Below are positions 2,503-20,929 of a stretch of 64,000 bases of DNA, in pieces. The number at the start of each line of letters is the position of its first letter. Positions within the stretch are counted from its first letter, which is position 1. Location: positions 16,493 to 80,492 of the IMG/VR virus record IMGVR_UViG_3300012209_000006; one strand, written 5' to 3'. Under the pieces are notes generated by a model that searched no databases, was not told where the DNA came from, and saw only the letters and a list, made by a program, of their open reading frames with translations. The stretch comes from a virus. The position numbers and the translations under genes are program-made.

Positions 2503-2527
2503 CATCCGCTAGAACTTGTAGTATAGT
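2499..2527 (+). promoter_or_regulatory. Sigma70-type promoter
   Basis: TTGACA(2499-2504)-17 bp-TATAGT(2522-2527), upstream of GGAG RBS and ATG 2551. Confidence 0.8.
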
Positions 2528-4168: not shown

Positions 4169-4503
4169 TTCAAGACAAAGTTAGCCGTACCATTTCGTGT
4201 GACAACAAAGGCTGCGATAAGACCGTGACCTTTGCCCCCGACAATCAAGAAGAGATCGCAGCCCTCCCTGAGTGGCTTCGAACGTTTCGAAACGTGAACC
4301 TAGGAAACGGCGCCAAGTTTGGCTACTGCTCCGACGTTTGCGAAGTCGAAGGCGCGACCACTGGTCAGCATAACGTTCCGGAACCTCCCAAAGTCCTGGC
4401 AGCTAACGCTGGCGACGTTAAGAGGGCCGTTGTTGAAGCCAAGATCGCGGAAGCAATGAAGACGCAACCCGGTGATGGCGCAGGTAAAGTAACTCTGTCG
4501 TAA
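4165..4503 (+). CDS. Hypothetical Cys-containing (putative Zn-binding) protein
   Basis: CDNKGC and YCSDVC pairs; ATGA overlap with upstream stop. Confidence 0.7.
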   Translation: MIQDKVSRTISCDNKGCDKTVTFAPDNQEEIAALPEWLRTFRNVNLGNGAKFGYCSDVCEVEGATTGQHNVPEPPKVLAANAGDVKRAVVEAKIAEAMKTQPGDGAGKVTLS

Positions 4504-4513
4504 GAGAGGGACC

Positions 4514-4825
4514 ATGGATGTTTTTATTCACATTAGGGGATTCCTTCGCGTGCCGATCGGGGAAGCGACTTTCAAATCGCACAAGTTCTCTGTTCGGCAC
4601 GACGACTCCGAAAAAATCGCGGAGTTCATCAACGACGCGATGATGGAGATCGTTAACATGAAAGGTATGATCACCCCCAAAGATGAAAACAAATCGACCA
4701 AGGGAATCGAAGGCTTCAACAACATAAAGTTCTGGCATATAGATAACTTCGCTCATTTCGAGATCGAGACGAAGATTCTAACGGCTCAGATTCCCGACCC
4801 CAAGAGAGTGGAGCTACTGCAATGA
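4514..4825 (+). CDS. Hypothetical protein
   Basis: GAGGG RBS; ATGA coupling to the next gene. Confidence 0.7.
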   Translation: MDVFIHIRGFLRVPIGEATFKSHKFSVRHDDSEKIAEFINDAMMEIVNMKGMITPKDENKSTKGIEGFNNIKFWHIDNFAHFEIETKILTAQIPDPKRVELLQ

Positions 4826-5322
4826 TCGAACCATTTGTCATCACAGGCGAGATCGACGCCAAGATCGCCAATAACTTCTTCACGTTGGCCGGCGCGGGTC
4901 TCATCACGGATGTTGTGATAAGCTCCGTGGGCGGAGACATTGGCCTGACGTTCGGTATGTTCGACGTGATCCGAATGCTAAGCATCAACACGCATGTCGT
5001 GGGTATCGCGCAGTCTGCGGCCGCCGTATTGCTACAGGCGGGCAAGCTACGCACCATGACGGACGCCAGCCTACTCCAGTTCCACGCGCCGGAAGAGCAC
5101 GTCACTGACGCGCAGTTTCGGCTCTATACTCAGCTTGTCGAGATGGTCGCGCAGCGTACTGGTTTGCACATAACCGAAGCTCACGATCTGTTCGACAACA
5201 AGTTCATCACCGCCAACAAGGCCCAAGAGTTGGGCCTTATTGACGAGATTGCAACTCCGGCTCCTACGGACCCGAGAGATACTGACATCATAAGGTGGGT
5301 GAGAAATGGGCGAAGTAATTAG
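4822..5322 (+). CDS. clpP: ClpP-family serine protease subunit
   Basis: ISSVGGDI, GIAQSAAAVLL (catalytic Ser), LLQFH (His), FITANKAQELGLIDEI typical of ClpP. Confidence 0.8.
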   Translation: MIEPFVITGEIDAKIANNFFTLAGAGLITDVVISSVGGDIGLTFGMFDVIRMLSINTHVVGIAQSAAAVLLQAGKLRTMTDASLLQFHAPEEHVTDAQFRLYTQLVEMVAQRTGLHITEAHDLFDNKFITANKAQELGLIDEIATPAPTDPRDTDIIRWVRNGRSN

Positions 5323-5599
5323 CATGGACGCAAAGAAAGACAAGCTTAAGGACGCCGTCGCGGCGTTCACGTTCTCGCGCTTGCCGCGGGAGCAGCGCAT
5401 TGCTCAAATTATGTATGGAATTCTTTCTCACGAGACTACGGGGTTAGAGAATGATTCTATTCACGATAATGGAGCAATTGTTCTTAAAATCACCGACAGT
5501 GAAGGACTAATCGAACTGGCTTCTATGCTCGAGCCATATGCATTAAAAGATTTTGCAGTCCGTTACGGACACTTGGGAGACGGCGTTGCCAAGGCGTAA
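5306..5599 (+). CDS. Hypothetical protein
   Basis: 97-aa ORF in the operon, overlapping clpP end. Confidence 0.6.
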   Translation: MGEVISMDAKKDKLKDAVAAFTFSRLPREQRIAQIMYGILSHETTGLENDSIHDNGAIVLKITDSEGLIELASMLEPYALKDFAVRYGHLGDGVAKA

Positions 5600-5960
5600 A
5601 GTATCAGACAATCGCGCAGAGGAAGTAGAATATCGTCTGCTTTCTATGATTCAACGAAGAGAGGCATATGGCGGTCCGGAAATTCGGGTCCGCCTTACTG
5701 CGATTCTTTTGTTGGCAAAGCTGTGGAAAGTCGATATGGCGGGAATCGCCGTCGAGCATTGGCTCGATATGGCCGGAGTGACGGACAAGAACACTAGAAT
5801 GGCTATGTCTGGCGTTTTGGATTTCTCTGTCCTGAAAGAAGTAGGAACAGGTGTGCCTCCTGCGTTTGTTCCCAATCCCAAGGATCCTAAACTTGTTGAA
5901 GAAAAGCCCTTGACTTCTGCTCCGACCCGTAGTATCCTTGAAGAGTTTGGAGAAAAATGA
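5586..5960 (+). CDS. Hypothetical protein
   Basis: TTG at 5586 behind GGGAG, in frame with track ORF 5553..5960; start uncertain. Confidence 0.6.
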   Translation: MPRRKVSDNRAEEVEYRLLSMIQRREAYGGPEIRVRLTAILLLAKLWKVDMAGIAVEHWLDMAGVTDKNTRMAMSGVLDFSVLKEVGTGVPPAFVPNPKDPKLVEEKPLTSAPTRSILEEFGEK

Positions 5961-6337
5961 TGGCGATCAAATACATTCCAGCATTCGAAGACAAAATGAT
6001 TCCAGGTGACTGGCGTGTCGAGGCGATGAACGAACATACCGGCGAAGTTTACATAGCTATTTTTACCGGAGTCGAAGCTGAACGTCGAGCTGCCGAATAC
6101 GCTGCTTTCAAGATGGGTAAACTACCGGCGCCTAAGTCGGCAGTAGCGACGGCAGCCCCGGCCCCTGTGTTCGGCGCAACCCCAGAGTTCGTCATCAAAA
6201 CGGACAATGGTCACGAACTTCTGATTCGGCCAGACGGCCTAATATGGACTTACGACAAGAAACGTGAAAAGATTTCTGCTTGGCCCAAGGGGCCGATCGA
6301 ACTTCTAAGCACTAATAAAACGAAAGAAGGAAAATAA
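5957..6337 (+). CDS. Hypothetical protein
   Basis: ATGA overlap upstream and TAATG overlap downstream. Confidence 0.7.
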   Translation: MMAIKYIPAFEDKMIPGDWRVEAMNEHTGEVYIAIFTGVEAERRAAEYAAFKMGKLPAPKSAVATAAPAPVFGATPEFVIKTDNGHELLIRPDGLIWTYDKKREKISAWPKGPIELLSTNKTKEGK

Positions 6338-7044
6338 TGTTACTCGCATCATTCGACTTGGAAACAACAAGTTTGGATCTCAACCAAGCGCGCGTGATTG
6401 AGGTTGGTGCGCTTCTCTACACGACCACTTTCAAACGTGTCGTTATGGCGGAGAGTTTTCTAGTCGACAACGAAGAGCCGATTGGAAAAGAAAGCTCGGA
6501 CCTCACCAAAATCAACACGGCTATGGTAGGCAAGTTTGGTCTGACGCCGTCCGACGCTCTGTCCCGTTTGCAGAATTATTTTGACATGGCAGACACTGTG
6601 GTTGGTATGAATATACTTGATTACGATTTGCCGGTCTATAAAAACTGGTGTCTTCGTGAAACTCAAGAGCCCATCGAACGTCCCACGATCGATATCATGA
6701 CGGATCTTCCTGGGGTGGAATCTAAGAAGTTGGCGTACATGGCGGCAGACGCAGGTTTCCTGAACCCGTCCCCCCACGCTGCCCTAGCCGATGCATGGAC
6801 TGCGCTTCGTTTGATCGAGAGTCAGCCGGATTTTGCGAAAGTCGTCGAGCGGTCGAAGTCGCCCCGGGTTTATTTGAAAGCGCTGGTTACGTTCGACACG
6901 AACTATCTAGCCAAGGAGCGGAAGTTCAAATGGGATCCCGCCACTAAGACGTGGTATAAGGTCGTCAAAGAAATGGATGTTGACCAAGAAGCCAAAGAGT
7001 GCCAGTTCGATTTGAAGCGCATCCAACCAATCATTTCTCAATAA
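6337..7044 (+). CDS. DEDDh 3'-5' exonuclease (DnaQ/epsilon-like) with short C-terminal DUF5710-like domain
   Basis: FDLETT, GMNILDYD, HAALAD motifs; tail AKERKFKWDPATKTWY. Confidence 0.85.
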   Translation: MLLASFDLETTSLDLNQARVIEVGALLYTTTFKRVVMAESFLVDNEEPIGKESSDLTKINTAMVGKFGLTPSDALSRLQNYFDMADTVVGMNILDYDLPVYKNWCLRETQEPIERPTIDIMTDLPGVESKKLAYMAADAGFLNPSPHAALADAWTALRLIESQPDFAKVVERSKSPRVYLKALVTFDTNYLAKERKFKWDPATKTWYKVVKEMDVDQEAKECQFDLKRIQPIISQ

Positions 7045-7100
7045 GAGTTTTGGGCGCAAGCCTGAATGCATCTAAACCGAAAAACAAAGGAAATCAAAAA

Positions 7101-7682
7101 ATGGGAATCGTAGTCGATGATAAACCAGCAGGACCACCGAAGGTATATCCAGTCGCATCCGAGGGCGTCGCTCTAGTCGTTCTAGCCGACGTTGAAGATC
7201 TCGGAGTTCAGCAGAATCAGTTTTACGGAGCCAGGAGAGAAGTTCGTCTCACCTGGGTCGTAAACGAAAAGGATCCCGAAGGCAACTATTTCGTGATCTC
7301 GCGTAAATACACCGCGTCTCTCCACGAGAAGTCGAATCTTTTCGGAGACGTGAAAGACATGATTGGTCGCACGCCCCCGACGTCTCTTGACATCGAAACC
7401 TTGATCGGCACCGTCAATTCCGGCGTCATCAAACAAGTCGATGGCAAGGATAAGAATGAAGGCAAGAAATTTGCAAATATCAAGGCGTTCTTGGCTCCTC
7501 GCGCAGGCGAGATGTTCGCGATCCCCAAGGATTTCGTTCGTGGCAAGGACGGCGGCAAGTTCGGTCGCGCGCAGCAACAGCGCGGCAGCAGCACTCAAAC
7601 TCGTACGGCAGCTAACGTTCAGACCGCGGCAACGCGTCAGGCGCCGGCCCAAGAAGTGGCCGACGAAGATATTCCTTTTTAA
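7101..7682 (+). CDS. Putative phage single-stranded DNA-binding protein
   Basis: Beta-rich core, Gln/Ala low-complexity linker and acidic C-terminus DEDIPF; AAGGAA RBS before ATG 7101. Confidence 0.7.
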   Translation: MGIVVDDKPAGPPKVYPVASEGVALVVLADVEDLGVQQNQFYGARREVRLTWVVNEKDPEGNYFVISRKYTASLHEKSNLFGDVKDMIGRTPPTSLDIETLIGTVNSGVIKQVDGKDKNEGKKFANIKAFLAPRAGEMFAIPKDFVRGKDGGKFGRAQQQRGSSTQTRTAANVQTAATRQAPAQEVADEDIPF

Positions 7683-7694
7683 GGAATCGATGTT

Positions 7695-7800
7695 GTGCAG
7701 CCATTCTGCACTGATCTGGTGGTAGGGGAGATCGCGGCTAGCTCGTTACCGAGCACAGACGACCAATCGTGTCGCACTCCCCGATCCTGGTAGCACCAGC
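7695..7800 (+). ncRNA. Candidate structured RNA (three-way junction)
   Basis: GTGCAG/CTGCAC hairpin; nested CTGGTG/CACCAG, GGGGAG/CTCCCC, GCGGC/GTCGC closing hairpins GCTCG-TTAC-CGAGC and ACGA-CCAA-TCGT. Confidence 0.4.
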
Positions 7801-7829
7801 AAGAATGCCAAAAATCCAGGACCAATTTT

Positions 7830-8402
7830 ATGAGCCGATATAACAGAATCAAAGTCTGTAAGAAAAACATCCATAAGATGACGCCGGAAAATACCGGCAA
7901 GAAAGGGGTTTGTATAGCCTGCAAAAACGCATACAAACGCCAATGGAGATTAGATCACCCGGGATACGGGCTAGCTTATCAACGAGCACACAAATAGCAG
8001 ATAAACAAAAATCACAAAGAAAGACGGAAGCAAAACCCAGAAAAAGCAAAACAGTATTATCGGTTATTTACGTACAACTTATCCGAAGAAAGGTATCAAG
8101 AGTTTTTACGCGAGCAAAGCGGAGTTTGCGTTTGCGGATTTCCTTTCGATAGCGCGCAACATAGTCCATGCATTGATCACGATCATACGTGTTGTTCTGG
8201 AGATCGATCGTGTGGAAAATGCATACGTGGAATTTTAGGTAAGTCTTGTAACATAATTCTGGGACTCGCGCAGGACAACAATACAGGCGTTCTTTCTAGG
8301 CTATCTGAGTACACAAGGATATGGGGAAAAAACAATGAGTTTCAAAGATCTGGCACTCCCTCTGGCGATGCGAAATGTGCCGGTCGTAAGATTGCAACCT
8401 AA
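7830..8402 (+). pseudogene. Endonuclease VII homing endonuclease with in-frame TAG at 7995-7997
   Basis: Hand translation MSRYNRIKVC...CIAC...RAHK*QINK...CVCG...CIDHDHTCCSGDRSCGKCIRGILGKSCN...; not in the ORF track. Confidence 0.8.
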
Positions 8403-10425
8403 AAGCAAGGTAGCAATGGACAGGTCGTGGCAGACTATTTGTACGACCAACGTTGATACCATATTAGCCTGGGACTCGGAGACCCCGAATGCGGGATGCG
8501 CGAGTGTGGCTAAGGATTCCGGAGTTTGTTTCTTAGAGACCGATGAGCCGGGGGTGATTGAGCGTTACGAGAAAGAAACAGGTCACTCATTCAAGACGTT
8601 TACCGTTCAGTCGCGCAAAGATAGATATCACTTCTATCTAGGCCAGACAGACGACACCAGAAGAGTGGGATCCATTACTCAAGGCGAACTTAAGTTCGGA
8701 TCATTTCGTCAAAATAATGCCTATTGCGTTTCGCCTGGATCGGTTCACCCTATCACCGGCCTGCCATACACAATTCATGATTCTTCCCCAATCATACCGG
8801 CGCCTAAAGCTCTCATTGATTGGTTGGTTTCTCAAGTCTCCAAAACTCAGTCTGCAGCTGCGGCAACAGCGCTCGGTGGAGAACTTATTCCTCACGGCGC
8901 AATTCATGCAGCCCTAGTCAGCGAAGCTGGTCGTCTGCGCAAGTTTGGGCACGAAGTGTCTGTGATCGAAACAGCGTTAATCAGTTGGGCTCACGCTCAC
9001 TGCGCGCCCCCCATTGATATATCTAAAGTGCAACAAATCGCCAAATCCATGGCGAACTATAAGCAAGAAGATCCTCGCTTAGAAGATCTAGTCAAATCTT
9101 TCAAGAATGCAGACGTGGAATTGATTCCGACTGGGAGCGAAACCGTAGAGAAGGAAATCGTCAGCAACGAATTGGAATATCCGTACTGGGCTTGGAACGG
9201 CACACTGTACGAAGACTTCGCATCTCTGTGTGGCGAGAATAATAAAGTTCCGAAAGAGTATTTCATCGAATCCATCAAGACAGTCGTAGGAGCTATATGC
9301 GGCCATCGTATTACACCGTTCAAGGCGCAGAGTCAGGAAGCTCGATTCTATACAGTTATGATTGGACCCGGCGGATGCGGCAAATCATCTGCGACAAAAT
9401 GGTCCCGGGATCTCTTCATTGGCACCGGCTTGATGTACGAGCTTTCACAAACTGGTGCGTTCATGAACATTGGATGCGCGCAGGGCAATTTTGCTTCGTC
9501 CTCCGGCCTGATCAAGAACGGATTTTCGAAACACGACAGAATTCTGCAGGTCTACGACGAGGCAACAACGTTGATCGAGAAGTTTGGCATAACAGGCTCC
9601 GGCGACTCATTCTTGGACGCGATTAACCAGATCTTCGAATCCGGAACCATGCCTCAACTGACGACCAAGGAAAGCAAAGACGTCTTGACAAAGATGGTCC
9701 ACAATAGTATACTTGGTTGCACAACGAAAGAGAAGTGGGCCTCGGCTTTCGTGAAGACAAACTCAGAGAGCTCCGGGTTCTTTCAGCGCCTTAACATCAT
9801 CACCAATGACTCTGACGAGCGCGTGGCGAATTGGTTGGAGCCTGATTTGTCTGCATTGCGCGAACGGTTTGTGCGCAAGATTCAGCCGTTGGAGTTTCAG
9901 GAAGTGGTCGTAAACAAAACTCCCGAGGCCGTCGACATTCTCGAAAAGTGGTATGCCGAAAGGCGCGCGGAGTGGAAGGAATTGCCGACGGATATCACGG
10001 GTCGAATCCAAGTTATGATTCATCGCAATGCCTCGCATCTCGCGTGGCTTATGAGCGGCGCTGATGTATTGCCTAATGCAGAGAAGGCGTCTGAGCCTAT
10101 CGAAGTGCTCTGTGATGAAGATATCATGGAGCGTTCGATCGCGCTGGCAGAGTATGAGCTAGCGGCCCGTACGGCCCATCAGCCAGCTCCAGGGCGCAAC
10201 GATTACGCCGTCATGGAGAGTTTGATCAAGACCTCGGTGAAGCGCCGTGGGCTCCTGGAAAGATCTAAGCTATACCGTGAAGTTCGCGGGGACCATTTTG
10301 GAACTCAGATTTTCGATAAGTGTATTCAGAATCTTGTGCATGAAGGCATCCTTAAGATCGGCCAGCGTGAAGGAGAAATAAGGCGCGGCAGAAAGGCGCA
10401 AATCGTGATGTGGGTCAACGATTAA
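8335..10425 (+). CDS. Primase-polymerase/PriCT plus helicase-like (DUF3987-type) replication protein
   Basis: Prim-Pol motifs (FLETD, HFYL, YCVSPGSVHP), PriCT-like helices, Walker A GPGGCGKS, Walker B VYDE. Confidence 0.8.
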   Translation: MSFKDLALPLAMRNVPVVRLQPKSKVAMDRSWQTICTTNVDTILAWDSETPNAGCASVAKDSGVCFLETDEPGVIERYEKETGHSFKTFTVQSRKDRYHFYLGQTDDTRRVGSITQGELKFGSFRQNNAYCVSPGSVHPITGLPYTIHDSSPIIPAPKALIDWLVSQVSKTQSAAAATALGGELIPHGAIHAALVSEAGRLRKFGHEVSVIETALISWAHAHCAPPIDISKVQQIAKSMANYKQEDPRLEDLVKSFKNADVELIPTGSETVEKEIVSNELEYPYWAWNGTLYEDFASLCGENNKVPKEYFIESIKTVVGAICGHRITPFKAQSQEARFYTVMIGPGGCGKSSATKWSRDLFIGTGLMYELSQTGAFMNIGCAQGNFASSSGLIKNGFSKHDRILQVYDEATTLIEKFGITGSGDSFLDAINQIFESGTMPQLTTKESKDVLTKMVHNSILGCTTKEKWASAFVKTNSESSGFFQRLNIITNDSDERVANWLEPDLSALRERFVRKIQPLEFQEVVVNKTPEAVDILEKWYAERRAEWKELPTDITGRIQVMIHRNASHLAWLMSGADVLPNAEKASEPIEVLCDEDIMERSIALAEYELAARTAHQPAPGRNDYAVMESLIKTSVKRRGLLERSKLYREVRGDHFGTQIFDKCIQNLVHEGILKIGQREGEIRRGRKAQIVMWVND

Positions 10426-12584
10426 TGAGTCGCGAACTACATTTCGATTTTGAAACGCGCAGCCCCCTCGACTTGAGCGAGGTCGGGGTTCATCGATATT
10501 TCGAACACCCCCAAACGCAGATCTTGATGGCAGCCTATGCCTTCGGCGACGGCGAAGTAGACGTGTGGGAGTGTCACAAAGAATCGATACCGGCCCGGTT
10601 TGAGAAGGCTCTGCGCGACCCCAATACTAAGAAGGTGGCGTGGAACATCGGCTTCGAGCACACGGCTACGCATAAGAGATTAGGAATTTTTATTCCGTTC
10701 GAAGAGACGAAAGACCCGTCAGTCGGCGCGCGCCATCTATCCATTCCCGGCAAGCTGGCAAACGTGGGTCGCGCTCTGGACTTGCCCCTAGAAGTCTACA
10801 AGAACGAACCGCGCGGCGCTGTTCTGCGTAAGCTGTTCACTGAGCCGGTACCGGTAAAGAAGCGCAAACAAGCCGAAGACAAAAACGTTCTGTTCGACAT
10901 ATCGCCTATAGAGGAACAAGAAGTAGAGCGCGAGTACGTCTTTAACGATCACAAGTCCCACCCTAAAGAGTGGGAGGAGTTTGTTGAATACTGCCGGCAG
11001 GACGTAGTAGCCGAGCGCGCAGTGGAGAAGTGCACAGACATTTTCCCTTTGACTGAGAAAGAACAGAAGATGTGGTACCTCGATCAGAAGATCAACCTGA
11101 CCGGTATTGCGTCCAACAAAGACTTCGCTAAGAAGTGTTTCGATATGGCGAAGAAAAACAGAAATGAATACACCGACAAGATTCGCGCCATCACCGGTCT
11201 GGAGAACCCCAACTCTAACCAGCAGATGCTCGCGTGGGTAAGTAAACGCGGCTATCCCTACAACTCCTTGCGTAAGGAGCCAGTTCGCGCGGCCCTCACA
11301 GATGAACAAGTCAAGATGACGGACGACTGCCGTTCGGCTCTTGACATTCTCAAATACTCCAAGAAAACCTCTTACACGAAACTGGAAGCAATGATCAACG
11401 CTCGTAGCGCTGACGGCCGCCTGCGAGATCAATTCATGTTCCTGGGCTCGCCTCGCGCGGGCCGGTGGACGGGACGAGATGTGCAGCTGCAAAATATGGC
11501 GCGTCCGATCAAGGCGATCGAAAAGAAGGGTGCGCTTGAGAAGGCGATCGGTCTAATCTTCGCCAACGATTACGAAGGGTTGAAACAAGCTTTCCCGAAG
11601 GATCCCCTCATTGAAGTGCTGACGTCGTGCATTCGTTCTGCCCTAGTTGCGGAGCCCGGCAATCGGCTCGACGTTTGTGACTTGAACGCGATTGAAAATC
11701 GAGTCCTGGGATGGGTCTCTGGCGAGGAAGCCATTCTGGATGTGTTCCGCGACGGCAAGTGCCCGTACCTGGACTTCGCTTCGTTCTGGTTCAACATTCC
11801 GTATGCTGTGATTGAAGCCGCGTACAACAACGACGACCCCGACGCCAAGTTCAAACGACAGATTTCAAAGCCCGCGGTTTTGGGCTGCGGCTACCGGCAG
11901 GCTGGTGGTGATTGGGGAAAGAACAAGTACGGCGACCGCGTCAAGACCGGTCTATGGAAATACGCCGAAGATATGTTCTGCCCGATGTCGAAAGATCAGG
12001 CACATGAAGCCGTAGCTATCTTCCGCGGCCGATTCAAGAAAGTTGTTCAGTTCTGGTACGATTCAGAGCGCGCGGTTATGCGCTGCATAAAGACAGGCGC
12101 ACCAGAGTGGCTCGGGCCAACGAATCTTATTTGGTGTGATCGCCGTAAGAGGAAAAACGGGCAATACATTCTTCGCATTCATCTTCCGTCCGGTCGTTGC
12201 TTGCATTATCTGAACGTTCATACCGAAGACCGTGAGCTCTCTGGTCGCGACGGAACTACCTACATGAAAGAGACGATCATCTATGATGGCGTTGATCAGA
12301 CCACTAAGATGTGGGGTCCGATCACCACGCACGGCGGAAAGCTGACCGAGAACATCGTGCAGGCTATCGCTCGAGATCTTCTGGTCGAAGGGCTGCTTAG
12401 GGCCGACGAGATAGGTATGAGAGTAGTTGCTCACGTTCATGACGAAATTATTTGTGAACAAGAAGATTCAGAACTCGCGCTGGGTTTAGACGACCTAATG
12501 TGGTGCATGTCGGCGCCTGTAGATTGGGCTCCTGGACTTCCCCTTAAAGCAGGAGGATGGAGTGGAAAATATTACAAAAAGTAG
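10425..12584 (+). CDS. Family A DNA polymerase with 3'-5' exonuclease
   Basis: DFET exonuclease motif, GRW...QLQN, DLNAIE motif A, K...LGCGY motif B, HVHDE motif C; TAATG start at 10425. Confidence 0.93.
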   Translation: MSRELHFDFETRSPLDLSEVGVHRYFEHPQTQILMAAYAFGDGEVDVWECHKESIPARFEKALRDPNTKKVAWNIGFEHTATHKRLGIFIPFEETKDPSVGARHLSIPGKLANVGRALDLPLEVYKNEPRGAVLRKLFTEPVPVKKRKQAEDKNVLFDISPIEEQEVEREYVFNDHKSHPKEWEEFVEYCRQDVVAERAVEKCTDIFPLTEKEQKMWYLDQKINLTGIASNKDFAKKCFDMAKKNRNEYTDKIRAITGLENPNSNQQMLAWVSKRGYPYNSLRKEPVRAALTDEQVKMTDDCRSALDILKYSKKTSYTKLEAMINARSADGRLRDQFMFLGSPRAGRWTGRDVQLQNMARPIKAIEKKGALEKAIGLIFANDYEGLKQAFPKDPLIEVLTSCIRSALVAEPGNRLDVCDLNAIENRVLGWVSGEEAILDVFRDGKCPYLDFASFWFNIPYAVIEAAYNNDDPDAKFKRQISKPAVLGCGYRQAGGDWGKNKYGDRVKTGLWKYAEDMFCPMSKDQAHEAVAIFRGRFKKVVQFWYDSERAVMRCIKTGAPEWLGPTNLIWCDRRKRKNGQYILRIHLPSGRCLHYLNVHTEDRELSGRDGTTYMKETIIYDGVDQTTKMWGPITTHGGKLTENIVQAIARDLLVEGLLRADEIGMRVVAHVHDEIICEQEDSELALGLDDLMWCMSAPVDWAPGLPLKAGGWSGKYYKK

Positions 12585-12981
12585 CGCTGAAAAAGCGAAA
12601 TTGTGGAGGCAGGCAAACCCAGAAAAAGCTAGAGAAATTCATCGCAGACATGTAGAAAGAAATAGAGATAAAATTAACGCTAGAAACAGAGCCAGATACA
12701 CTACCGACGGCCGTTGGGAAAAACAGCTTAGAGATCGTTTTGATATGACGGCTGAGCAGTATTGGAATCTACACAACAAGCAAAATGGATTGTGTGCAAT
12801 CTGCGGTAAGCCTCAGTGCGTAGGAACCAAATTAGACGTCGATCACGACCACGTAACTGGAAAAGTCAGGGGTCTACTTTGTAGGCATTGTAACGCAGGA
12901 ATAGGGATGCTAAAAGATAGCGTAGGTTTATTACTGCAGGCTTTAAGATATTTGCTTGACAGCGGCTCTTCGTTGTGGTAA
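12562..12981 (+). CDS. Free-standing endonuclease VII homing endonuclease
   Basis: CAICGK...VDHDHVTGKVRGLLCRHCN; visibly AT-richer than neighbours. Confidence 0.9.
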   Translation: MENITKSSAEKAKLWRQANPEKAREIHRRHVERNRDKINARNRARYTTDGRWEKQLRDRFDMTAEQYWNLHNKQNGLCAICGKPQCVGTKLDVDHDHVTGKVRGLLCRHCNAGIGMLKDSVGLLLQALRYLLDSGSSLW

Positions 12982-13001
12982 AGTCTCAAGAGTGAGGAAA
13001 C

Positions 13002-14015
13002 ATGACAAAGCTTGATCCAGTAGTCGTAACCGGAGATTTGATCCTGCTCGACCCAGAGCAGCGCGTCCAGTTCTATATCCAGACGTGCGAGTCTATGGGT
13101 CTGAATCCTCTGACGCGTCCTCTCCAGTATTTCGAGCAAATCGATCGCAACGGAAAACGTAATCTGATCCTGTACGCGCTCCGCGGCGCCTCGACGCAGC
13201 TGAGCAAGAAACACAATCTCAGTTCTACGATCGCGAATCAGAACACCACGTTTTCGGGCGAAGTCGCGGTATTCGAAGCCACAGTCAAAGATCCGTCAGG
13301 GCGAACTGAATCCGCGATCGGTGTCGTATCCCTTAAAGGTTTGGTCGGCAAAGAATACGCAGACGCCATTATGGCAGCCCAGACGAAAGCAAAGCGTCGC
13401 GCAGTGCTGGACTTCGTTGGCTCCGGTCTTCTGGATGAAACGGAAGTAGAAGGCATGCGTGGAGCCGTAGTCGAAGTTATGGATGCGGCCCTTGTGGGAT
13501 ATGTGCCCATTCCATCGGCACCGACAGTTAGCAACGCGCCGGCTACGGAGGTTATTTCAGCGCCGAATATCGATCCAAAAATAATCGAAGCCGGAAACGC
13601 GCTCACCAATCGCGCGGTTGAACAGCTTCAAGAGATGTTGAAAATAGCGGATCAGGTTTCAGGTTCGGCCCCCACGACGTCAATTACTCCGAAGTGTTTG
13701 ACGATAGATTCTAAAATGGTCGGCGATTCATCACAGCCGATCGAACCTTTTGTGCTGGAAGCACCTCCCTCAAAAGCAGACATGGACAAGATTACCGCGC
13801 GCCTTAACGTGTATCGTAGAGACGTCTTGCAACGCGGCGGTATGCGGCCTTCGAAGGGCTTCGGTATTGCGGCGAAGTGGGAGAAGTTCATGAGGAAGAA
13901 GGCTCCCAACAAATCAGTCGAAGAGTATAATACATTGCTCACGCTCCTGGACGACACTCTCAAACAGGCGGGTGAAGGCGCTGTAGTGCACTTCATCGAA
14001 CAGGATATCACTTGA
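13002..14015 (+). CDS. Single-strand annealing/recombination protein (RecT/Beta-like)
   Basis: GDL..LDPEQRVQFY...GLNPLTRP...LYA...MAAQTKAKRRA pattern; neighbours UvrD and a RecB-type nuclease. Confidence 0.65.
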   Translation: MTKLDPVVVTGDLILLDPEQRVQFYIQTCESMGLNPLTRPLQYFEQIDRNGKRNLILYALRGASTQLSKKHNLSSTIANQNTTFSGEVAVFEATVKDPSGRTESAIGVVSLKGLVGKEYADAIMAAQTKAKRRAVLDFVGSGLLDETEVEGMRGAVVEVMDAALVGYVPIPSAPTVSNAPATEVISAPNIDPKIIEAGNALTNRAVEQLQEMLKIADQVSGSAPTTSITPKCLTIDSKMVGDSSQPIEPFVLEAPPSKADMDKITARLNVYRRDVLQRGGMRPSKGFGIAAKWEKFMRKKAPNKSVEEYNTLLTLLDDTLKQAGEGAVVHFIEQDIT

Positions 14016-15904
14016 GTTTCCCGCTCAACCCCGAACAGCTTGAGGCCGTAAACTTTCGCGAAGGCTATGCTGTGGTTCAGTCCGGCCCCGGCTCAGGGAA
14101 AACGCGCACGACAGTAGAGCGCGTCCATTCCATCCTCGAAGAGGGCTATCCGCCAGACAATATTCTGGCACTGACCTTCACGCGCGAGGCCGCGCTCGAG
14201 ATGGCCAAACGCGCAAAGCTTCCGGAGGACCAGAAAATATTTCGAACGTTCCACAGCTTCTGCCTCGAACTCGTGCACCGAGAGCGGGACAAGCTTCCGT
14301 TCCAGCTTCTGCACGCACCGCCGGAGCCGGGACAGCAGCGAAAGCTTATCGGTACGCTGTGTCGCGAGAACCGTTTGGACTTCAAGGGTTTGGTTAGCTA
14401 CATCTCGGCGATGAAGCGCAAAGGCTTGTCTACCGATGAAGCTATGGAAGAAGCTTTGGGCGCCAAGGGGCTTCATCTAGCGGTTGCGTACAAGAAGTAT
14501 GAACTCAAGTGCCGCGAAGAAGGCTGGCTGGATTTCGATTCGATGCTGGTAGAGAGCGTCAAGCTGCTGGAAAACAATCCAGAAGTTTTGTCGCGTTGGC
14601 AATACAAGTTCGTGCTTGTGGACGAAGCCCAGGACACAGACGACATTCAGTGGAAATTGGTTGAGCTACTTTCGAAGGAGAACAAAAATGTATTCGCTGT
14701 TGGAGACGAAGAACAACTAATCTACGCTTGGCGGGGGGCACAGCCCAACGGACTTTCTAAGTTTGGCGAGCGCTTTCCTGGAAGCAGAACCATCTTTCTT
14801 TTCCGCAATTACCGTTCTACTAGGCAGATCGTGGAGTTTTGCAAGAAGTTTGCGCCTAAGAAAAGCGAGCTCATTGATCGTATGGTATCCGAAGTCGGTG
14901 ATGGACCAGTTCCGGTTGTGCGCCTGTTTGGGTCCGACTCAGACGAAGCTTCAAAGATTCTTTCGTCCGTCGTGGAGCCCGAACGAACCGCAATTCTCAC
15001 GCGCACGAACCGTCAGCTCTCGCGCTTCGAGAATGCGTGCATTGATCGGGGAATTAAGTATAACCTGTTGGGGCGAAGTGGGTTTTGGGTTCAGCCAGAA
15101 GTAAAGTATCTTTTGGCATATGCCCAAGCTACAGAGTTTCCGTCCGACGCCGCGGTCAAGTCTATCATTCAATCTCCATACCGGGAGACGAAATATCTCA
15201 AGAAGAAAGACTTAATTTCTGCCCTGGACACTCACGCGAAGAGCGAGAAGGTTGTCACAGGTAAGTCTACGCCCTACATAAAGCTTATGACGGATCCGGC
15301 TATCTTGAGGCAGTTCACAGATCAGCAGTGTGACAACATCAAACGGGCGGCACAGTTCATTCGATCGTTCAGGCAGCCCGGCGTCACTCCTACGGCGGCG
15401 TTACAGAATACGCTTGACAGAGCAGACGTGAAGGTGTACTATGAAACTGAGGAGGAAAGCGACGGAGACAACGACGCTATAGAAAACATCAATGAGCTTA
15501 GTAAAATTGCAACAAGATACAAAACAGTTCCAGAGTTCCTCGACTTCGCGAGAAAAGCTATTGCTGCCTCCCGTAAATCTAAGCAACCACGACTCACATT
15601 GTCCACTGTGCATCGGTCAAAAGGGAGAGAGTTCGACTTCGTTTTTGTTACAGGCATTAATGAAGGTATGTTCCCTCATAAAAAAGGTGATATAAACGAA
15701 GAGAAACGAATTTTTTATGTCGCTTGTACGAGGGCGGCAAAACGATTAACCGTTTCTTGTTTTGGGAAACCTTCCTGTTTTTTGGAGACGCTTTTAAATG
15801 AGAAAGAAAACAAGATTTGCGAGATTGTATCGGGCGAGAAACAAAGCGAAGGGCCTGTGTGGGTGCGGTCGCAAGCCCTTCTTGGATTTGAAAACTTGTC
15901 CTAA
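14012..15904 (+). CDS. UvrD/Rep superfamily 1 helicase
   Basis: GPGSGKT, VDEAQD, VGDEEQLIYAWRG, NYRST, TVHRSKGREF, FYVACTRA. Confidence 0.93.
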   Translation: MSFPLNPEQLEAVNFREGYAVVQSGPGSGKTRTTVERVHSILEEGYPPDNILALTFTREAALEMAKRAKLPEDQKIFRTFHSFCLELVHRERDKLPFQLLHAPPEPGQQRKLIGTLCRENRLDFKGLVSYISAMKRKGLSTDEAMEEALGAKGLHLAVAYKKYELKCREEGWLDFDSMLVESVKLLENNPEVLSRWQYKFVLVDEAQDTDDIQWKLVELLSKENKNVFAVGDEEQLIYAWRGAQPNGLSKFGERFPGSRTIFLFRNYRSTRQIVEFCKKFAPKKSELIDRMVSEVGDGPVPVVRLFGSDSDEASKILSSVVEPERTAILTRTNRQLSRFENACIDRGIKYNLLGRSGFWVQPEVKYLLAYAQATEFPSDAAVKSIIQSPYRETKYLKKKDLISALDTHAKSEKVVTGKSTPYIKLMTDPAILRQFTDQQCDNIKRAAQFIRSFRQPGVTPTAALQNTLDRADVKVYYETEEESDGDNDAIENINELSKIATRYKTVPEFLDFARKAIAASRKSKQPRLTLSTVHRSKGREFDFVFVTGINEGMFPHKKGDINEEKRIFYVACTRAAKRLTVSCFGKPSCFLETLLNEKENKICEIVSGEKQSEGPVWVRSQALLGFENLS

Positions 15905-16307
15905 GTGCCTCGAATTTAATAAGGATCTCCGACGCAGATACAGAAAAGCCGGACTATGCTGGTGTAGTAGACCTATAGATATTCCCGGATTTAAACATTG
16001 CTCGGTGTGCAGGGCAGCTGTTAACGCTATTACGCGGCAGATGAAACTGGATGTCATAAAAGCTTATGGGGGTAAATGCAAATGTCCTGGAGGCTGTTCA
16101 GTTACGGAGATTGATTGGCTTACTATAGATCACATCGATGGCGGGGGCATTCGGCACAGGAAAGAGTTGAAAATGTTAGGACAAAGTTTCTATCGTTGGT
16201 TAAGAGATCATGGATTTCCTAAGAAAGAGTTTCGTTTGTTGTGTTATAATTGTAATATGTCTCGAGGACATTTAGGAAAATGCCCTCACGAAAGAGGTAT
16301 TCACTAA
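15798..16307 (+). CDS. HNH homing endonuclease
   Basis: Cys-rich N-terminus; CKCPGGC...TIDHIDGGG...LLCYNCN. Confidence 0.85.
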   Translation: MRKKTRFARLYRARNKAKGLCGCGRKPFLDLKTCPKCLEFNKDLRRRYRKAGLCWCSRPIDIPGFKHCSVCRAAVNAITRQMKLDVIKAYGGKCKCPGGCSVTEIDWLTIDHIDGGGIRHRKELKMLGQSFYRWLRDHGFPKKEFRLLCYNCNMSRGHLGKCPHERGIH

Positions 16308-17518
16308 TGGCCTTTCTTTATATAGACTCGTCTGGCGAAGAGCGTAACCGACACTCTTACAGTGCTGGTCTAGAGTTCGATCATTCCCCATTGAAATATT
16401 GGCTTCACCGCGTTATGGGTTGGCGCCAGAAGGATACCAACGCCGCGCTTCTGTTTGGTCGTGCCCTCGAAGACGCCATTCAGTTTTACCATGAGACGAA
16501 TCGTAGATCAGGTGAAGACGAGTTCATTCGCCTGTGGACGTTGGCGAAAGACAAGACTTTGGTTTACACGAAGAAGGAGGTGAGTTGGGAAAGTCTTCTT
16601 CGCGCGGGCCGGGAAATGATGCGCCTTTACGCGATACGGCAGCCATCTCTTCCGATTCCGATCGACACCATTTTTCAACGTGCGTTCGCCAAAGAGATCT
16701 TTCCAGGCAACGAGAAGTACGGCGGCATCGAGTTCTACGCCAAGTTAGATATGATTGCCTATGCGCCGCCAGATCATCCAATGCTCCCCAAGATGGAGTG
16801 GAAAGAATCCTACGGCTTGCTTCGGCCCGTGATCGTGGACATCAAAACGAGCGGCATCGATCTAGACGACACGTTCGGGATCGTCGGTCACGACCTGCAG
16901 CTGCGTACTTATGCTTGGGTGAAAGGCTCTTACGACGTCGCATTCCTGTGGTTTAAGAAGTGCGGGCACAAACTCAAGAAGGGCTGTAGCGTAACGCTGT
17001 TGGTTGATTCGGATCGATTCCTGGCCGGAGACGAGGCCGTGATTGCGTCCGTAGAAGGTGACAGTGCGTATCTCGTCGGCAACGACGATATGATTGAGGA
17101 AATGAGAAAGGCGCAGGGGTTCAGAGAAGGAACCAACTCTCTAGATACCACCAAGGCCGCCAAAGCCCGCGCCGCTGCGTGGCGTGAAGCCAACGCTGTG
17201 CTGGTGAAGGGTGAGAATATCACCCGGCAGCGGATGCAGTTCAGCGCTGCCCGCGTAGACCCTAAGAGCGCGGACGATGCAGGACAAATCGCGGCAGATC
17301 AGATCGTTCGTATCGTCAACGCCTGGGAAGCCAATCGGTGGACCAATACCTTCGGAGTGCGGTTCCCGCATGACGATCGTAAGGATCCTTATTTCAAAGC
17401 TTTTGTCTTGCGCGACAACGTATTTCGTGATAGTATGTTTGAGCAGAAAGCAGAAGAAGATTTGAACGATTATTTTGACGAGCCGGACGAGCTCAATGAG
17501 CCTGAGGAGGCTGAATAA
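16307..17518 (+). CDS. PD-(D/E)XK RecB/Cas4-like nuclease
   Basis: ALLFGRALEDA, KLDMI, IVDIKT, QLRTYA motifs; TAATG start. Confidence 0.8.
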   Translation: MAFLYIDSSGEERNRHSYSAGLEFDHSPLKYWLHRVMGWRQKDTNAALLFGRALEDAIQFYHETNRRSGEDEFIRLWTLAKDKTLVYTKKEVSWESLLRAGREMMRLYAIRQPSLPIPIDTIFQRAFAKEIFPGNEKYGGIEFYAKLDMIAYAPPDHPMLPKMEWKESYGLLRPVIVDIKTSGIDLDDTFGIVGHDLQLRTYAWVKGSYDVAFLWFKKCGHKLKKGCSVTLLVDSDRFLAGDEAVIASVEGDSAYLVGNDDMIEEMRKAQGFREGTNSLDTTKAAKARAAAWREANAVLVKGENITRQRMQFSAARVDPKSADDAGQIAADQIVRIVNAWEANRWTNTFGVRFPHDDRKDPYFKAFVLRDNVFRDSMFEQKAEEDLNDYFDEPDELNEPEEAE

Positions 17519-18081
17519 TGTTGGTTCGATGCAAGACTCAAGATTGCCCCCACGCAATAACTTTACCCGATGATCGGGCATCAAAAAGTTCTGTTTATGT
17601 TTGCTCGGAATGTTCTCGAATTGATTCCTCCGAGGATCTTCTTCATTTTCAGAATTATGCATTTGATCCGGAGCTAGGAACGCGCAAAACCCCTCGGCGA
17701 GGAGAAGTAGAAGCGCACAACGCCATAAACGGAAAAGGATCTCATTTTAGTCGGAAGAGCTCGGGTTTTTCTGTCATACAAGTAAAGAAAGAAAATAGAA
17801 CAACGCCAACACCCGAATGGGCCAAAACGAATGAAGGCATTCAAAAAATTTTATTAACAGCTTTTCCGAAACTTCATGTTAACGCTTTGCAACGAAAACG
17901 GGCCGGTAGATGGGCACAAATCATTCAATTGTATTTTCGCGAAGGTTTGGTTTTTTCGGTGGTTGCCGAGGAATTGTTAGAGAAACCAAGAGCAATAGAG
18001 ATGGTAATTCGTAGCATAATCTGGACATCAAAAGGTATGCGGGCTAACGGATCAGGGCCAAGAACCAGAATCGTGACGTAG
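17518..18081 (+). CDS. Putative transcription regulator (Zn-binding N-terminus, sigma region 4-like HTH)
   Basis: CKTQDC..VCSEC; C-terminal IIQLYFREGLVFSVVAEELLEKPRAIEMVI resembles a region 4 HTH. Confidence 0.45.
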   Translation: MLVRCKTQDCPHAITLPDDRASKSSVYVCSECSRIDSSEDLLHFQNYAFDPELGTRKTPRRGEVEAHNAINGKGSHFSRKSSGFSVIQVKKENRTTPTPEWAKTNEGIQKILLTAFPKLHVNALQRKRAGRWAQIIQLYFREGLVFSVVAEELLEKPRAIEMVIRSIIWTSKGMRANGSGPRTRIVT

Positions 18082-18102
18082 TTTTAAAGACATAATGGAG
18101 GG
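18072..18102 (+). repeat. 31-bp direct repeat copy 1, promoter-like
   Basis: CGTGACGTAGTTTTAAAGACATAATGGAGGG, identical at 20899-20929. Confidence 0.9.
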
Positions 18103-18183
18103 CAGGAATAGAGCCCTAAAGGAACCCACAAGCCGGCGTAGTTTAAGGTGCCGGGTTCCGCCCTCCAACGTTTTAAGGAAAAC

Positions 18184-18624
18184 ATGTCGAAAGTCTTAGT
18201 CCATACATGCTATTCCATAGAGGCAGGCGACCCGAAGCCGACGATATGTGCTTGTAGGAAGTTTGTTTCCAGCGCTGTATCAAAGAAGCTGTTGGCCGAG
18301 GGTTTGGCAGAGTACGTGCTTAAGTACGATCGCAAAGTACCTTACCACTCTGGAACCGAAGTTTGCTTGGTGAACAGAAAGAAATCGACGCCCAGAGCCG
18401 CCACAATCGAAAAGGCTCACATTCTGAGAGCATATGTTGCAGGCGATTTGGAAGAGCAAGAGCGAATAAATGAGTACGGTCGAATGGCCAAAGATTTGAG
18501 AAATGGGATTACCAAACTTTACGACGACGCAGAACACCGCGCGGCCGAGAAGAAGTACCGCGGTCGGGACTACTCGATAGTCGACGGCGGAGATATGTTA
18601 AGGCCCCTGGAGGCTAAGCAATGA
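18184..18624 (+). CDS. Hypothetical protein
   Basis: AAGGAA RBS before ATG 18184; ATGA coupling downstream. Confidence 0.7.
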   Translation: MSKVLVHTCYSIEAGDPKPTICACRKFVSSAVSKKLLAEGLAEYVLKYDRKVPYHSGTEVCLVNRKKSTPRAATIEKAHILRAYVAGDLEEQERINEYGRMAKDLRNGITKLYDDAEHRAAEKKYRGRDYSIVDGGDMLRPLEAKQ

Positions 18625-18956
18625 TCAAGATCAACGTATTGTCGCCGGCGCAGAAGGCCGTCGCGGCCGCGGTATTGAAGTTCCAAGAGGAATTCTATAA
18701 TCGATCTTTCTCTGGTCGCAACCCAGAGCTCGGCAAGATGATCAAGTGTGCGCAATGTGGACGGCGCCATAGGGATGCGGTCAAGCATGAGCTCATCAAG
18801 TATGCCGACAAGCCCGGGACACCAGAAGGCCAGAGCAACCCTATGGTCGCGGAGCCGAAGCATTTTCACGGCGTCGCCAACCCGTTCTGGCGTGCGAAGC
18901 CCGGAAAAAACATGTGGATTCCTGAGTTGAAAAAGTACGTCAATCTCACCCGATAG
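18621..18956 (+). CDS. Hypothetical protein with CxxC
   Basis: CAQCGRRH; translationally coupled. Confidence 0.7.
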   Translation: MIKINVLSPAQKAVAAAVLKFQEEFYNRSFSGRNPELGKMIKCAQCGRRHRDAVKHELIKYADKPGTPEGQSNPMVAEPKHFHGVANPFWRAKPGKNMWIPELKKYVNLTR

Positions 18957-18971
18957 GAAAGAGGAAACTCG

Positions 18972-20210
18972 ATGGGCCTGTTCAGCAAGACCAAACCTGT
19001 TACGAAGAGAATGGATGATACTCTCGTTTCGCCGGAAATTCAGAAGCTGGAGAATGAGCTTCTATCCCGCGTGATCGGGCAGGAAAGGGCGGTCAAACAG
19101 TTTGTTCGAATCCACGAGACCTATCTGTCTGGTCTTCGGCCCACAACCAAACCCATGCAGGTTCTTCTGTTCGTTGGGCCCACCGGCAGCGGTAAGACCC
19201 ACGTTGCAGAAGTCTTCGCTGAATTAATGAACGTTACGTTAATCAAAGTGGACTGCGGTGAGTTTCAACAATCCCACGAAGTCGCGAAACTTCTGGGCTC
19301 CCCTCCAGGATACGTAGGGGCTGAAACAAAACCCAAGATCAATAAGAGTGTGGTTGAAGCCAAGTGGGGCAAAGGCGGCCCAGAGTACACTATAATTCTT
19401 TTTGATGAGATTGAGAAGGCCGACCCAGATTTTCATCAGTTGCTTCTGGGCATTATGGATCGCGGAATTCTGACGACCGGAAAGAATGAGACCGTCGATC
19501 TGACAAAAACTATCGTGATCATGACGTCGAACCTCGGTTCGCGAGAAGTGAAGAAGCTTTTGAAAGATCACGGCGGCTACGGGTTCGGAACAGCGAGCGA
19601 GAAAGACGACACAATTCTGGATGAAGATATTTATCACGCATCGAAAGGTGCCGTGTCCAGGTTCTTTTCACCGGAGTTCTTCAACCGTATCGATCGCATG
19701 ATCGTGTTCAGAACTCTGAACGAAGAGTCTCTTCGAAAAGTTTTGGAATCGGAATTGAAGCTGGTTCAGGATCGCGTTCTGAAAGCCAACAAATTTGTTG
19801 GTGTGGAAGTATCCGATCGCGGAAAGACTTTCTTGGTCGAAGAAGGGACAAGCAAAGAGTTTGGTGCTCGCGAGCTCAAGCGTACCATTGAGCGATTCTT
19901 GGTCTCGAAAATAACGAGAGCCCTTGTAACAGGGCAAGTAAAGAACGGAGATATCGTTATGGCGGACAAAGAGCCCGGGTCCAACGAAATGGTTTTGGAC
20001 ATCATTAAAGCTGTTTTGGAGATTCCGAAACCGAAAACAGAGGCTTTTACAGTCAGGCAGCCTGCGCGAGTCACAGTGGAGCCAGAACATCCCGGGTCTC
20101 GTAGACCGTATGAAGGTGTAATCAATGCAGGATATTGCGCGCGATGCGGATGGCGTTGGTATGATAAACATCTGTGTTTCGATCTGCTAGATTCCGGCAA
20201 TATCCTGTGA
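18972..20210 (+). CDS. Single-domain Clp/Hsp100 AAA+ ATPase (ClpA/B/C D2-type)
   Basis: GPTGSGKT, GSPPGYVG pore loop, LFDEIEKA, IMTSNLG, YGF loop, FSPEFFNRID, GARELKR. Confidence 0.9.
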   Translation: MGLFSKTKPVTKRMDDTLVSPEIQKLENELLSRVIGQERAVKQFVRIHETYLSGLRPTTKPMQVLLFVGPTGSGKTHVAEVFAELMNVTLIKVDCGEFQQSHEVAKLLGSPPGYVGAETKPKINKSVVEAKWGKGGPEYTIILFDEIEKADPDFHQLLLGIMDRGILTTGKNETVDLTKTIVIMTSNLGSREVKKLLKDHGGYGFGTASEKDDTILDEDIYHASKGAVSRFFSPEFFNRIDRMIVFRTLNEESLRKVLESELKLVQDRVLKANKFVGVEVSDRGKTFLVEEGTSKEFGARELKRTIERFLVSKITRALVTGQVKNGDIVMADKEPGSNEMVLDIIKAVLEIPKPKTEAFTVRQPARVTVEPEHPGSRRPYEGVINAGYCARCGWRWYDKHLCFDLLDSGNIL

Positions 20211-20279
20211 TTAGAATGTTCGTATTGCTTGTGATTCTTCATGTTGGGTTTTGGGTTAGAGTTTATAGGAAGGTGATTT

Positions 20280-20819
20280 GTGGCAAATTTCGGAGACGTA
20301 GTAAACTGGGTTCTTCGTTTAGAAGACCGGACTCTGGCGGGAAAAACAGTTAACCTTGGTGACGGCGCCGGATGGACGCGCTTTGGTGTGACGTCGAAGA
20401 ACAACCCTCAATTGCCCCCAACATTTTGGTGGGAAGCCCTTGGGCAAGCGCGAATGGCCAACGATGCCGCGCTTGAGGTTGCCAAGCGGTTCTATCACGA
20501 AAAGTACTGGATGCCCCTACACGGCACTCAGATCGTCACAGACGAGTTGGCAGCTACTCTGATGTCTTTCGCCGTGAACGACGGCCTGAGCGGCGCTGTG
20601 AAGCTTCTACAAGGCATCCTAGGGCTCACAGTCGACGGTTCCCTTGGGCCAAAAACCCTATCTGAACTACTAGCCAATGACACGCCCGAGACGGCCGCAA
20701 AGCTTCGTGACGCCCAAGAAAGCTTTTACGAACTAGTCGTTGCGAGAGACCAGAGCAAGCAGAGGTTCTTGGATGGCTGGCGATCTAGGGCCCAAGTTGT
20801 CTATCCGGATTTGCCGTAA
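20280..20819 (+). CDS. Endolysin, glycoside hydrolase family 108 with peptidoglycan-binding domain
   Basis: LRLE...GDGAGWTRFGVT, YHEKYW, FAVNDG..AVKLLQ..LG..VDG.LGPKT, RFLDGWRSR. Confidence 0.85.
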   Translation: MANFGDVVNWVLRLEDRTLAGKTVNLGDGAGWTRFGVTSKNNPQLPPTFWWEALGQARMANDAALEVAKRFYHEKYWMPLHGTQIVTDELAATLMSFAVNDGLSGAVKLLQGILGLTVDGSLGPKTLSELLANDTPETAAKLRDAQESFYELVVARDQSKQRFLDGWRSRAQVVYPDLP

Positions 20820-20898: not shown

Positions 20899-20929
20899 CG
20901 TGACGTAGTTTTAAAGACATAATGGAGGG
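20899..20929 (+). repeat. 31-bp direct repeat copy 2, promoter-like
   Basis: Exact match to 18072-18102; intergenic, at the head of the packaging/structural block. Confidence 0.9.

Follow-up and report, generated by a model that had tools for sequence, protein, structure and literature searches.

In our study, two Clp genes of a 93-kb soil phage were analysed, and with moderate confidence they are read as two separate tools and not as an obligate pair: a motor which would work on ClpP, most probably that of the host, and a core-only peptidase which would act independently of any ATPase. The DNA analysed (the window, 64,000 nucleotides) comprises bases 16493-80492 of the 92,832-bp IMG/VR record IMGVR_UViG_3300012209_000006, which carries direct terminal repeats and is estimated to be 100% complete. 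The peptidase, P0001, is encoded at positions 4822..5322 of the window and the ATPase, P0002, at 18972..20210, both on the + strand. An initial annotation of this DNA had proposed that the two form a dedicated unfoldase-peptidase pair owned by the phage. The observations used here are the family assignments, motifs and fold of the two proteins together with the synteny and distribution of their genes; from these, docking on host ClpP is the most likely arrangement for P0002, ATPase-independent activity is probable for P0001, and the substrates proposed below are likewise probable ones.

Family, fold and missing parts of the peptidase

P0001 is a 166-amino-acid, core-only ClpP-fold serine peptidase with an intact open reading frame (ORF) and a Shine-Dalgarno-like sequence. 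It matches the Pfam family CLP_protease (PF00574) with 47.5 bits against a cut-off of 20.2 (E-value 2.5e-12), over profile positions 48-180 of 182. The AlphaFold2 model, made from a 60-sequence alignment, has a predicted local distance difference test (pLDDT) value of 93. When compared with solved ClpPs, the model gave a Foldseek template modelling (TM) score of 0.78 and a VIA Z of 20-21, with a root mean square deviation of ~1.9 Å over 145-147 residues at 22-27% identity. The match above the Pfam cut-off and the ClpP core fold of the model bear out the initial assignment of this gene to ClpP. Searched by profile against 1.84 billion representative proteins, the family proved to be discrete, with 17 clusters at 50% identity reaching E <= 1e-30, after which the scores drop to a generic ClpP-like level. 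It comprises ~70 clusters at 90% identity, and their names are only automatic 'ClpP' labels. An exact-peptide scan of IMG/VR with P0001 returned nothing, and an alignment-based scan returned five clade members.

In comparison to bacterial ClpP (MEROPS S14; S. aureus 4emm and 3qwd, E. coli 3mt6, ClpXP 6wrf), P0001 has the same alpha/beta core and holds the nucleophile Ser in a G-x-A-x-S motif and the His at the same places, whereas the equivalent of residues 1-25 is missing, the handle is ~11 residues shorter, and neither the Asp-Arg pair nor most of the pocket residues are conserved. In the structure superposition, residue 1 of the model pairs with ClpP residue 24-26, so that the axial loop (gate) and helix A have no counterpart in P0001. 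P0001 has ~24 N-terminal residues fewer than canonical phage ClpPs, and its open frame offers no upstream start codon. The handle region is ~11 residues shorter than in the cell-type ClpPs of jumbo phages as well, and the handle helix is retained at residues 96-113. The Asp-Arg pair links the two rings of ClpP; in the sequence alignment its positions are not conserved in P0001.

The hydrophobic docking pocket of ClpP is known from acyldepsipeptide (ADEP)- and IGF-bound structures and consists, in E. coli numbering, of Y60, Y62, F82, I90, M92, F112 and L114. At the aligned positions P0001 has D30, V32, M52, H58, V60, T78 (or R77) and T80 (or M79), as placed by a sequence alignment and not by a modelled ring. 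The predicted pocket for IGF/LGF loops is largely polar, receives no contribution from helix A and is not a hydrophobic H site. The N-terminal loops, the handle and the H sites have been described as regulatory elements of ClpP, and the N-terminal loops and helix A as part of the docking surface and as necessary for communication with the ATPase (PMC9035409). Without gate and helix A, with a shortened handle and with few of the hydrophobic pocket residues, P0001 probably acts independently of an AAA+ partner.

The candidate catalytic residues, chosen by family conservation, are Ser65 (nt 5014-5016), His88 (nt 5083-5085) and Asp125 (nt 5194-5196), all on the + strand. Ser65 and Asp125 are invariant in 60 family members. 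In comparison to bacterial ClpP, the third catalytic residue appears shifted or replaced, as the ClpP catalytic Asp aligns on Asn126 with the invariant Asp125 adjoining it. The initial annotation had suspected by eye that this Asp is an Asn, which would fit a modulatory subunit. The alignment does place Asn126 there; the loss itself is probably an artefact, a slip of the alignment by one residue in a loop, because the neighbouring Asp125 is invariant while position 126 varies between N, G and D. The modulatory subunit, an idea resting on this probable slip, was not borne out. His88 is present in P0001, but M, V or I takes its place in a separate subclade (L088, L090, L102 and L103), which keeps the invariant Ser and Asp and has an insert after the His position that is 10-16 residues longer.

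Architecture and docking loop of the ATPase

P0002 is a 412-amino-acid, single-ring AAA+ unfoldase of the Clp/Hsp100 D2 type, with an intact gene and a Shine-Dalgarno-like sequence. Pfam matches were found to AAA_2 (E 1e-35) and ClpB_D2-small (E 7e-15), and among solved structures the D2 rings of ClpB, which ranks first, and ClpC come closest (E 1e-55 to 1e-52); the gene is a Clp ATPase, as had been annotated. The AlphaFold2 model has a pLDDT of 81. Walker A (GPTGSGKT, residues 69-76, 19176..19199), the pore-1 loop (GYVG, residues 113-116, 19308..19319), Walker B (ILFDEIEKA, residues 142-150, 19395..19421), sensor-1, sensor-2 and D2-small are all present, the located motifs lying on the + strand, and G113 and Y114 of the pore loop are invariant in 23 phage ATPases.

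The docking-type loop GGYGFGT (19572..19592, + strand) carries YGF at residues 203-205, 16 residues after TSN. When residues 165-262 were searched alone with HMMER, ClpC ranked first and YGF was placed on VGF of B. subtilis ClpC and AGF of S. aureus ClpC, whereas ClpB aligned to this region only with gaps. Residues 202-209 form the sole low-confidence segment within the AAA+ module of the model, as would be expected of a flexible docking loop. The alignment thus supports both the GYVG pore loop and the YGF at the ClpC docking-loop position that had been noted at first, and the loop is disordered in the model. Tyr as the first residue of the tripeptide is atypical.

P0002 resembles the D2 ring of ClpC, ClpA and ClpE (B. 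subtilis ClpC 3j3t; S. aureus ClpC 6em8 and 9gi1) in its AAA_2 and D2-small domains, GYVG, sensors and the position of the tripeptide loop. It differs in being a single ring without N-domain, D1 or M-domain, in the Tyr which starts the tripeptide and in an added CCHC tail. The class I architecture is lacking, as only ~20 residues precede the D2 module, and Pfam and solved-structure profile searches gave no Clp_N or D1 matches. With one ring and an xGF loop, P0002 is not of the ClpB/Hsp104 disaggregase type.

Relatives of the ATPase and its C-terminal tail

Relatives of the ATPase were present at 72 IMG/VR loci, and 23 of these were aligned. The tripeptide Gly (G204) is invariant in the 23 aligned phage D2-type ATPases and the Phe (F205) is at least 90% conserved. 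The only loop-less phage group is ClpB-like (TTNIGQ..F) and has a deletion at the loop position. Taking 46 proteins as the phage-clade orthologue set of P0002, the tripeptide is YGF in 26, MGF in 12 and another one in the remaining 8. A C-terminal CxxC...HxC (CCHC) motif (20136..20177, + strand; low pLDDT) is found in 42 of these 46 proteins versus 0 of 74 cellular-type homologues, and this tail may be a zinc knuckle which selects substrates or partners.

The nearest non-phage relatives of P0002 (44-48% identity over ~80% of the protein) are one-ring ATPases of 382-388 amino acids labelled Terriglobia, Blastocatellia or Acidobacteriota. The cellular one-ring relatives sit on contigs of up to 811 kb and carry GG-[ILM]-GF (LGF in 32, IGF in 21, MGF in 19). 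Their phylum fits the acidobacterial host of the nearest cultured phage, Tunturi_3. The Acidobacteriota one-ring AAA_2/ClpB_D2-small ATPases (among them P0242, P0251 and P0283) share with P0002 the one ring and an equally placed GG-x-GF loop, whereas they have LGF, IGF or MGF and no CCHC tail in place of the mostly YGF or MGF loops with a tail in the phage set. The phage lineage most likely took P0002 from this family; it would have kept the flexible x-G-F docking loop and gained the CCHC tail, which is phage-only.

A ClpP-family gene was found in 8 of the 39 searchable viral records. Three genomes estimated to be 95-100% complete have the loop without a ClpP-family gene (G020 with LGF, G034 and G044 with IGF), three genomes with a loop-less ClpB-like ATPase do carry ClpP, and over the 39 records the xGF loop showed no correlation with a phage-encoded ClpP. 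In G010 and G035, for example, a canonical ClpP adjoins loop-bearing ATPases. Since loop-bearing ATPases are common in phages without a ClpP gene, the host enzyme would be the only partner available to those, and host ClpP may be taken as the default partner.

In one jumbo-phage Clp ATPase (L054, IMG/VR 3300045988_163848, ~10001-10600) Walker A is interrupted, with ...NGILSHN followed by T. The interrupting sequence resembles the C-terminal end of an intein that has entered the P-loop.

Distribution of the two genes among related phages

Ten related loci were compared for synteny, with ~20 kb visible per contig, and absence of the ATPase refers to these syntenic stretches. The peptidase gene is present in all ten and always occupies the same slot of the replication module, with genes for a Cys-rich ~112-amino-acid and a ~103-amino-acid protein on its 5' side and small genes, an RNase_T exonuclease, primase, polymerase, helicase and nuclease on its 3' side. 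The L089 peptidase is 47% identical to P0001. The ATPase gene was found in six of the ten loci (the window, G001, G002, G006, L089 and the P0111 contig), in a slot before an endolysin/peptidoglycan-binding gene, which follows directly in L089 and one small gene further in the P0111 contig. In the other four (L090, L102, L103 and L104), tblastn of the stretch from the PD-(D/E)XK nuclease to the terminase or endolysin detected no ATPase, and only small unrelated genes lie there. Two helicase-anchored loci (P0116 and P0181) belong to differently organised phages with neither Clp gene nearby and are uninformative on pairing.

The peptidase is a clade-wide core gene and the ATPase is an accessory gene. 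In the window the two are 13.6 kb apart and stand behind different promoter-like elements. As the two genes are inherited separately, the motor more likely uses host ClpP and the peptidase works alone. Co-occurrence in related phages therefore gives a divided answer on the dedicated pair of the initial annotation: the genes stand together in six loci, and the peptidase is found without the ATPase in the slot in four. Both family assignments and the docking-type loop hold, but the pairing itself is not supported, as the independent distribution which the initial annotation had named as speaking against it is partly seen.

The state of the catalytic His was also compared across these loci. The ATPase is absent from the three His-less loci with a visible slot (L090, L102 and L103); it is absent too from L104, which keeps the His. 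The ATPase-bearing loci whose peptidase was examined (the window, G001/G002 and L089) all keep Ser-His-Asp.

Proposed roles and alternative explanations

In the mechanism of two separate tools, P0002 would be an active single-ring unfoldase of the ClpC-D2 type which docks on a ClpP barrel, most probably that of the host, and feeds in proteins selected by its tail. P0001 would be transcribed with the early and replication genes and would need no AAA+ partner, being an ungated peptidase that cuts unfolded proteins or particular proteins of the host or the phage. Some points weigh against this mechanism. The Tyr which replaces the cellular L, I or M at the start of the loop in most of the phage clade could be a re-tuning to the polar pocket of the phage's own peptidase. 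The pocket comparison comes from aligned residues and not from a ring model. The missing ATPase is missing from stretches of ~20 kb and not from whole genomes. Loss of the catalytic His in three of the four ATPase-less loci is a weak hint of a functional link between the two proteins.

The strongest alternative, possible though clearly less probable, is a phage-owned Clp protease in which P0002 hexamers dock by YGF on P0001 rings via a rewired and more polar interface and supply them with substrates. The window group, L089 and the P0111 contig, which make up at least three diverged lineages, all keep both genes at conserved positions, but every member of the clade has the peptidase and only some have the ATPase, and in the window they are far apart under different promoter-like elements. 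The Tyr of the loop is phage-specific, and neighbouring genes for a canonical ClpP and loop-bearing ATPases do exist in other phages (for example G010 and G035); P0001, however, has mostly polar pocket residues and lacks the N-terminal loops and helix A, the docking and communication elements of ClpP (PMC9035409). Likewise, the intact Ser-His-Asp of the examined ATPase-bearing loci and the absence of His from three of four ATPase-less loci would suit a pair, but L104 retains the His without an ATPase.

A broader picture, somewhat more doubtful still, is that of a soil-phage clade, with Acidobacteriota as its probable hosts, which has two unconventional Clp parts. One would be a gate-less ClpP core which degrades proteins with no ATPase and is used early in infection, a natural counterpart of ADEP-opened ClpP which in one subclade has become a His-less pseudo-protease. 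The other would be a host-derived one-ring unfoldase which, by its YGF loop and zinc-knuckle tail, redirects a ClpP barrel (the host's, or the phage core via a rewired polar pocket) to targets chosen by the phage.

It is unlikely that P0002 is a peptidase-free unfoldase or remodeller, which might dismantle a host complex or control the timing of lysis. Among solved structures it matches the ClpB D2 ring best, its position beside an endolysin/peptidoglycan-binding gene is conserved, and the discrete block that contains it has an exact 31-nt repeat on either side. Against this, ClpB-type sequences do not have the xGF loop, the ClpB-like phage group being deleted there, while in the aligned D2-type phage ATPases G204 is invariant and F205 nearly so; conservation within a disordered loop argues that the loop is in use.

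An action of P0001 on the host Clp system, by co-assembly with host ClpP or as a decoy titrating host Clp ATPases, is quite improbable. The ClpP core fold is retained (Z 21), and the subclade which conserves the gene without the catalytic His shows a non-catalytic role to be viable. P0001 would, however, be a poor decoy with its unconserved docking-pocket residues and missing helix A, and the shortened handle and unconserved Asp-Arg positions argue against mixed tetradecamers.

The P0001 gene lies inside the replication module, 18-26 kb upstream of the terminase, portal and capsid genes. Among cultured phages the nearest one is Tunturiibacter phage Tunturi_3 (portal 34% and capsid exon 1 65% identical), whose host is a soil acidobacterium. 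The two phages have terminase, portal, capsid and several tail genes in common, and the Tunturi_3 head module consists of terminase, portal, a small gene, a 343-amino-acid gene and capsid, with no protease; its complete genome gave zero CLP_protease and zero AAA_2 matches. A related capsid lineage without a ClpP-family gene argues against a prohead protease. Siphovirus ClpP-like head proteases (Streptococcus phage 315.1) are ~29-33% identical to P0001 over the ClpP core and adjoin portal or capsid genes, in contrast to P0001, which sits in the replication module and without which the capsid lineage can exist. A role of P0001 in head or virion maturation, from a gene remote from the head module, is hardly credible, since its partial and weak similarity to 'head maturation protease' families of PHROG (E 1e-10 to 1e-5), its best cultured-phage matches to ClpP-like head proteases of Streptococcus phages (~30% identity) and the lack of an S78 protease in the window's own genome are outweighed by its replication-module position in every relative, the Tunturi_3 capsid lineage which manages without it and the presence of a separate scaffold-like gene. 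This context agrees with the initial view that P0001 is not a capsid maturation protease. The separate scaffold invoked with that claim (29756-31129) is plausible from its position and composition, but matches no family.

Comparison with other phages and significance

Clp gene sets are known from jumbo phages at the level of annotation. Agrobacterium phage Atu_ph07 encodes Clp ATPases and ClpP-like peptidases, by annotation only (PMC6102473). Klebsiella phage RaK2 and its relatives have Clp gene sets, like this phage, and these too are described at annotation level only. In the jumbo-phage sets ClpP is of the cell type and full-length (related records match Pfam positions 2-181 with E 1e-50 to 1e-78) and is accompanied by several ATPases, whereas here the genome is 93 kb and the peptidase core-only. 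Our literature searches turned up mentions at annotation level and no functional work on any phage ClpP or Clp ATPase.

Phage Clp parts are thus widely annotated and none is characterised, and this locus offers two tractable cases. P0001 is a natural 'minimal ClpP' and a test case for a core without gate, helix A and full handle. P0002 looks like a captured host gene for a one-ring ClpC-type motor with a new targeting tail. Should host ClpP be its docking partner, as the reading of two separate tools would have it, this would be a compact viral route to reprogramme host proteolysis and would link the unstudied acidobacterial one-ring Clp ATPase family to ClpP. Should the motor dock on the core-only peptidase instead, their interface would couple an ATPase to ClpP in a new way.

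Genomic context and further observations

ORF and family scans placed nearly all genes of the window on the + strand. Their order is a DNA transfer protein, nucleotide-metabolism-like genes, the ClpP-like gene, replication genes, the ATPase/endolysin block, terminase, portal, the scaffold-like gene, capsid and tail. A megablast search of window positions 4000-21000 against cultured phages gave zero matches. The host phylum is probably Acidobacteriota.

The DNA transfer protein (662-2305; PHROG 1745, E 2e-158) is T5 A1-like, resembling the product of that pre-early gene of T5 in a genome which here has terminal repeats, and it carries an N-terminal helix-turn-helix (HTH). A near-consensus sigma-70-type promoter (2499..2527, + strand; 11/12 matches, a consensus match only) heads the string of genes which includes small nucleotide-metabolism-like genes and the peptidase. 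Two genes 5' of the peptidase, the Cys-rich protein of 112 amino acids (4165..4503, + strand) belongs to no Pfam or PHROG family; it has the pattern C-x4-C ... C-x3-C, is 44-60% identical in 9 related loci by tblastn and is more conserved than the peptidase in distant clade members. The gene between them (4514..4825, + strand; 103 amino acids) has a stop codon which overlaps the peptidase start as ATGA, and this overlap suggests translational coupling. The replication genes (6337-17518) encode an RNase_T-type exonuclease, a primase-polymerase, a family A DNA polymerase, a UvrD-type helicase and a PD-(D/E)XK nuclease.

The endolysin-like gene (20280..20819, + strand; phrog_315, E 1e-27) lies directly 3' of the ATPase. 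The 2.8-kb ATPase/endolysin block is enclosed by an exact 31-nt direct repeat on the + strand, which contains CATAAT and then GGAGG. Copy 1 (18072..18102) precedes a 158-amino-acid gene, a 111-amino-acid gene, the ATPase and the endolysin-like gene, and copy 2 (20899..20929) follows the block, 5' of the packaging genes. The repeat may represent either a promoter of the phage or the scar of a recombination tied to gain or loss of the block.

Further downstream, the terminase lies at 23026, the portal at 24988 and the intron-split capsid gene from 31169 onward, preceded by the scaffold-like gene at 29756-31129. Capsid exon 1 (31169-31756) has its 65% identity to an uninterrupted capsid gene in Tunturi_3 (PP885686.1 6463-7029), the replication modules of the two phages being unrelated, and structural modules appear to be exchanged between phages as units. 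Between the portal and the scaffold-like gene a 464-amino-acid protein (27451-28845) appears by eye to consist of three tandem copies of a Gly/Ser/Ala-rich unit of ~155 amino acids; it has no family match and no counterpart in Tunturi_3. A collagen-like fibre gene is followed, within the virion and tail genes, by one for a trypsin-like serine peptidase at 37724-38521 (Pfam Trypsin_2, E 2.5e-12). At least five genes of Endonuclease VII/HNH type were also identified (3374-4168, 12562-12981, 21031-21642, 31831-32349 and 33085-33798), the first of them fused to a nucleoside deoxyribosyltransferase-like domain.

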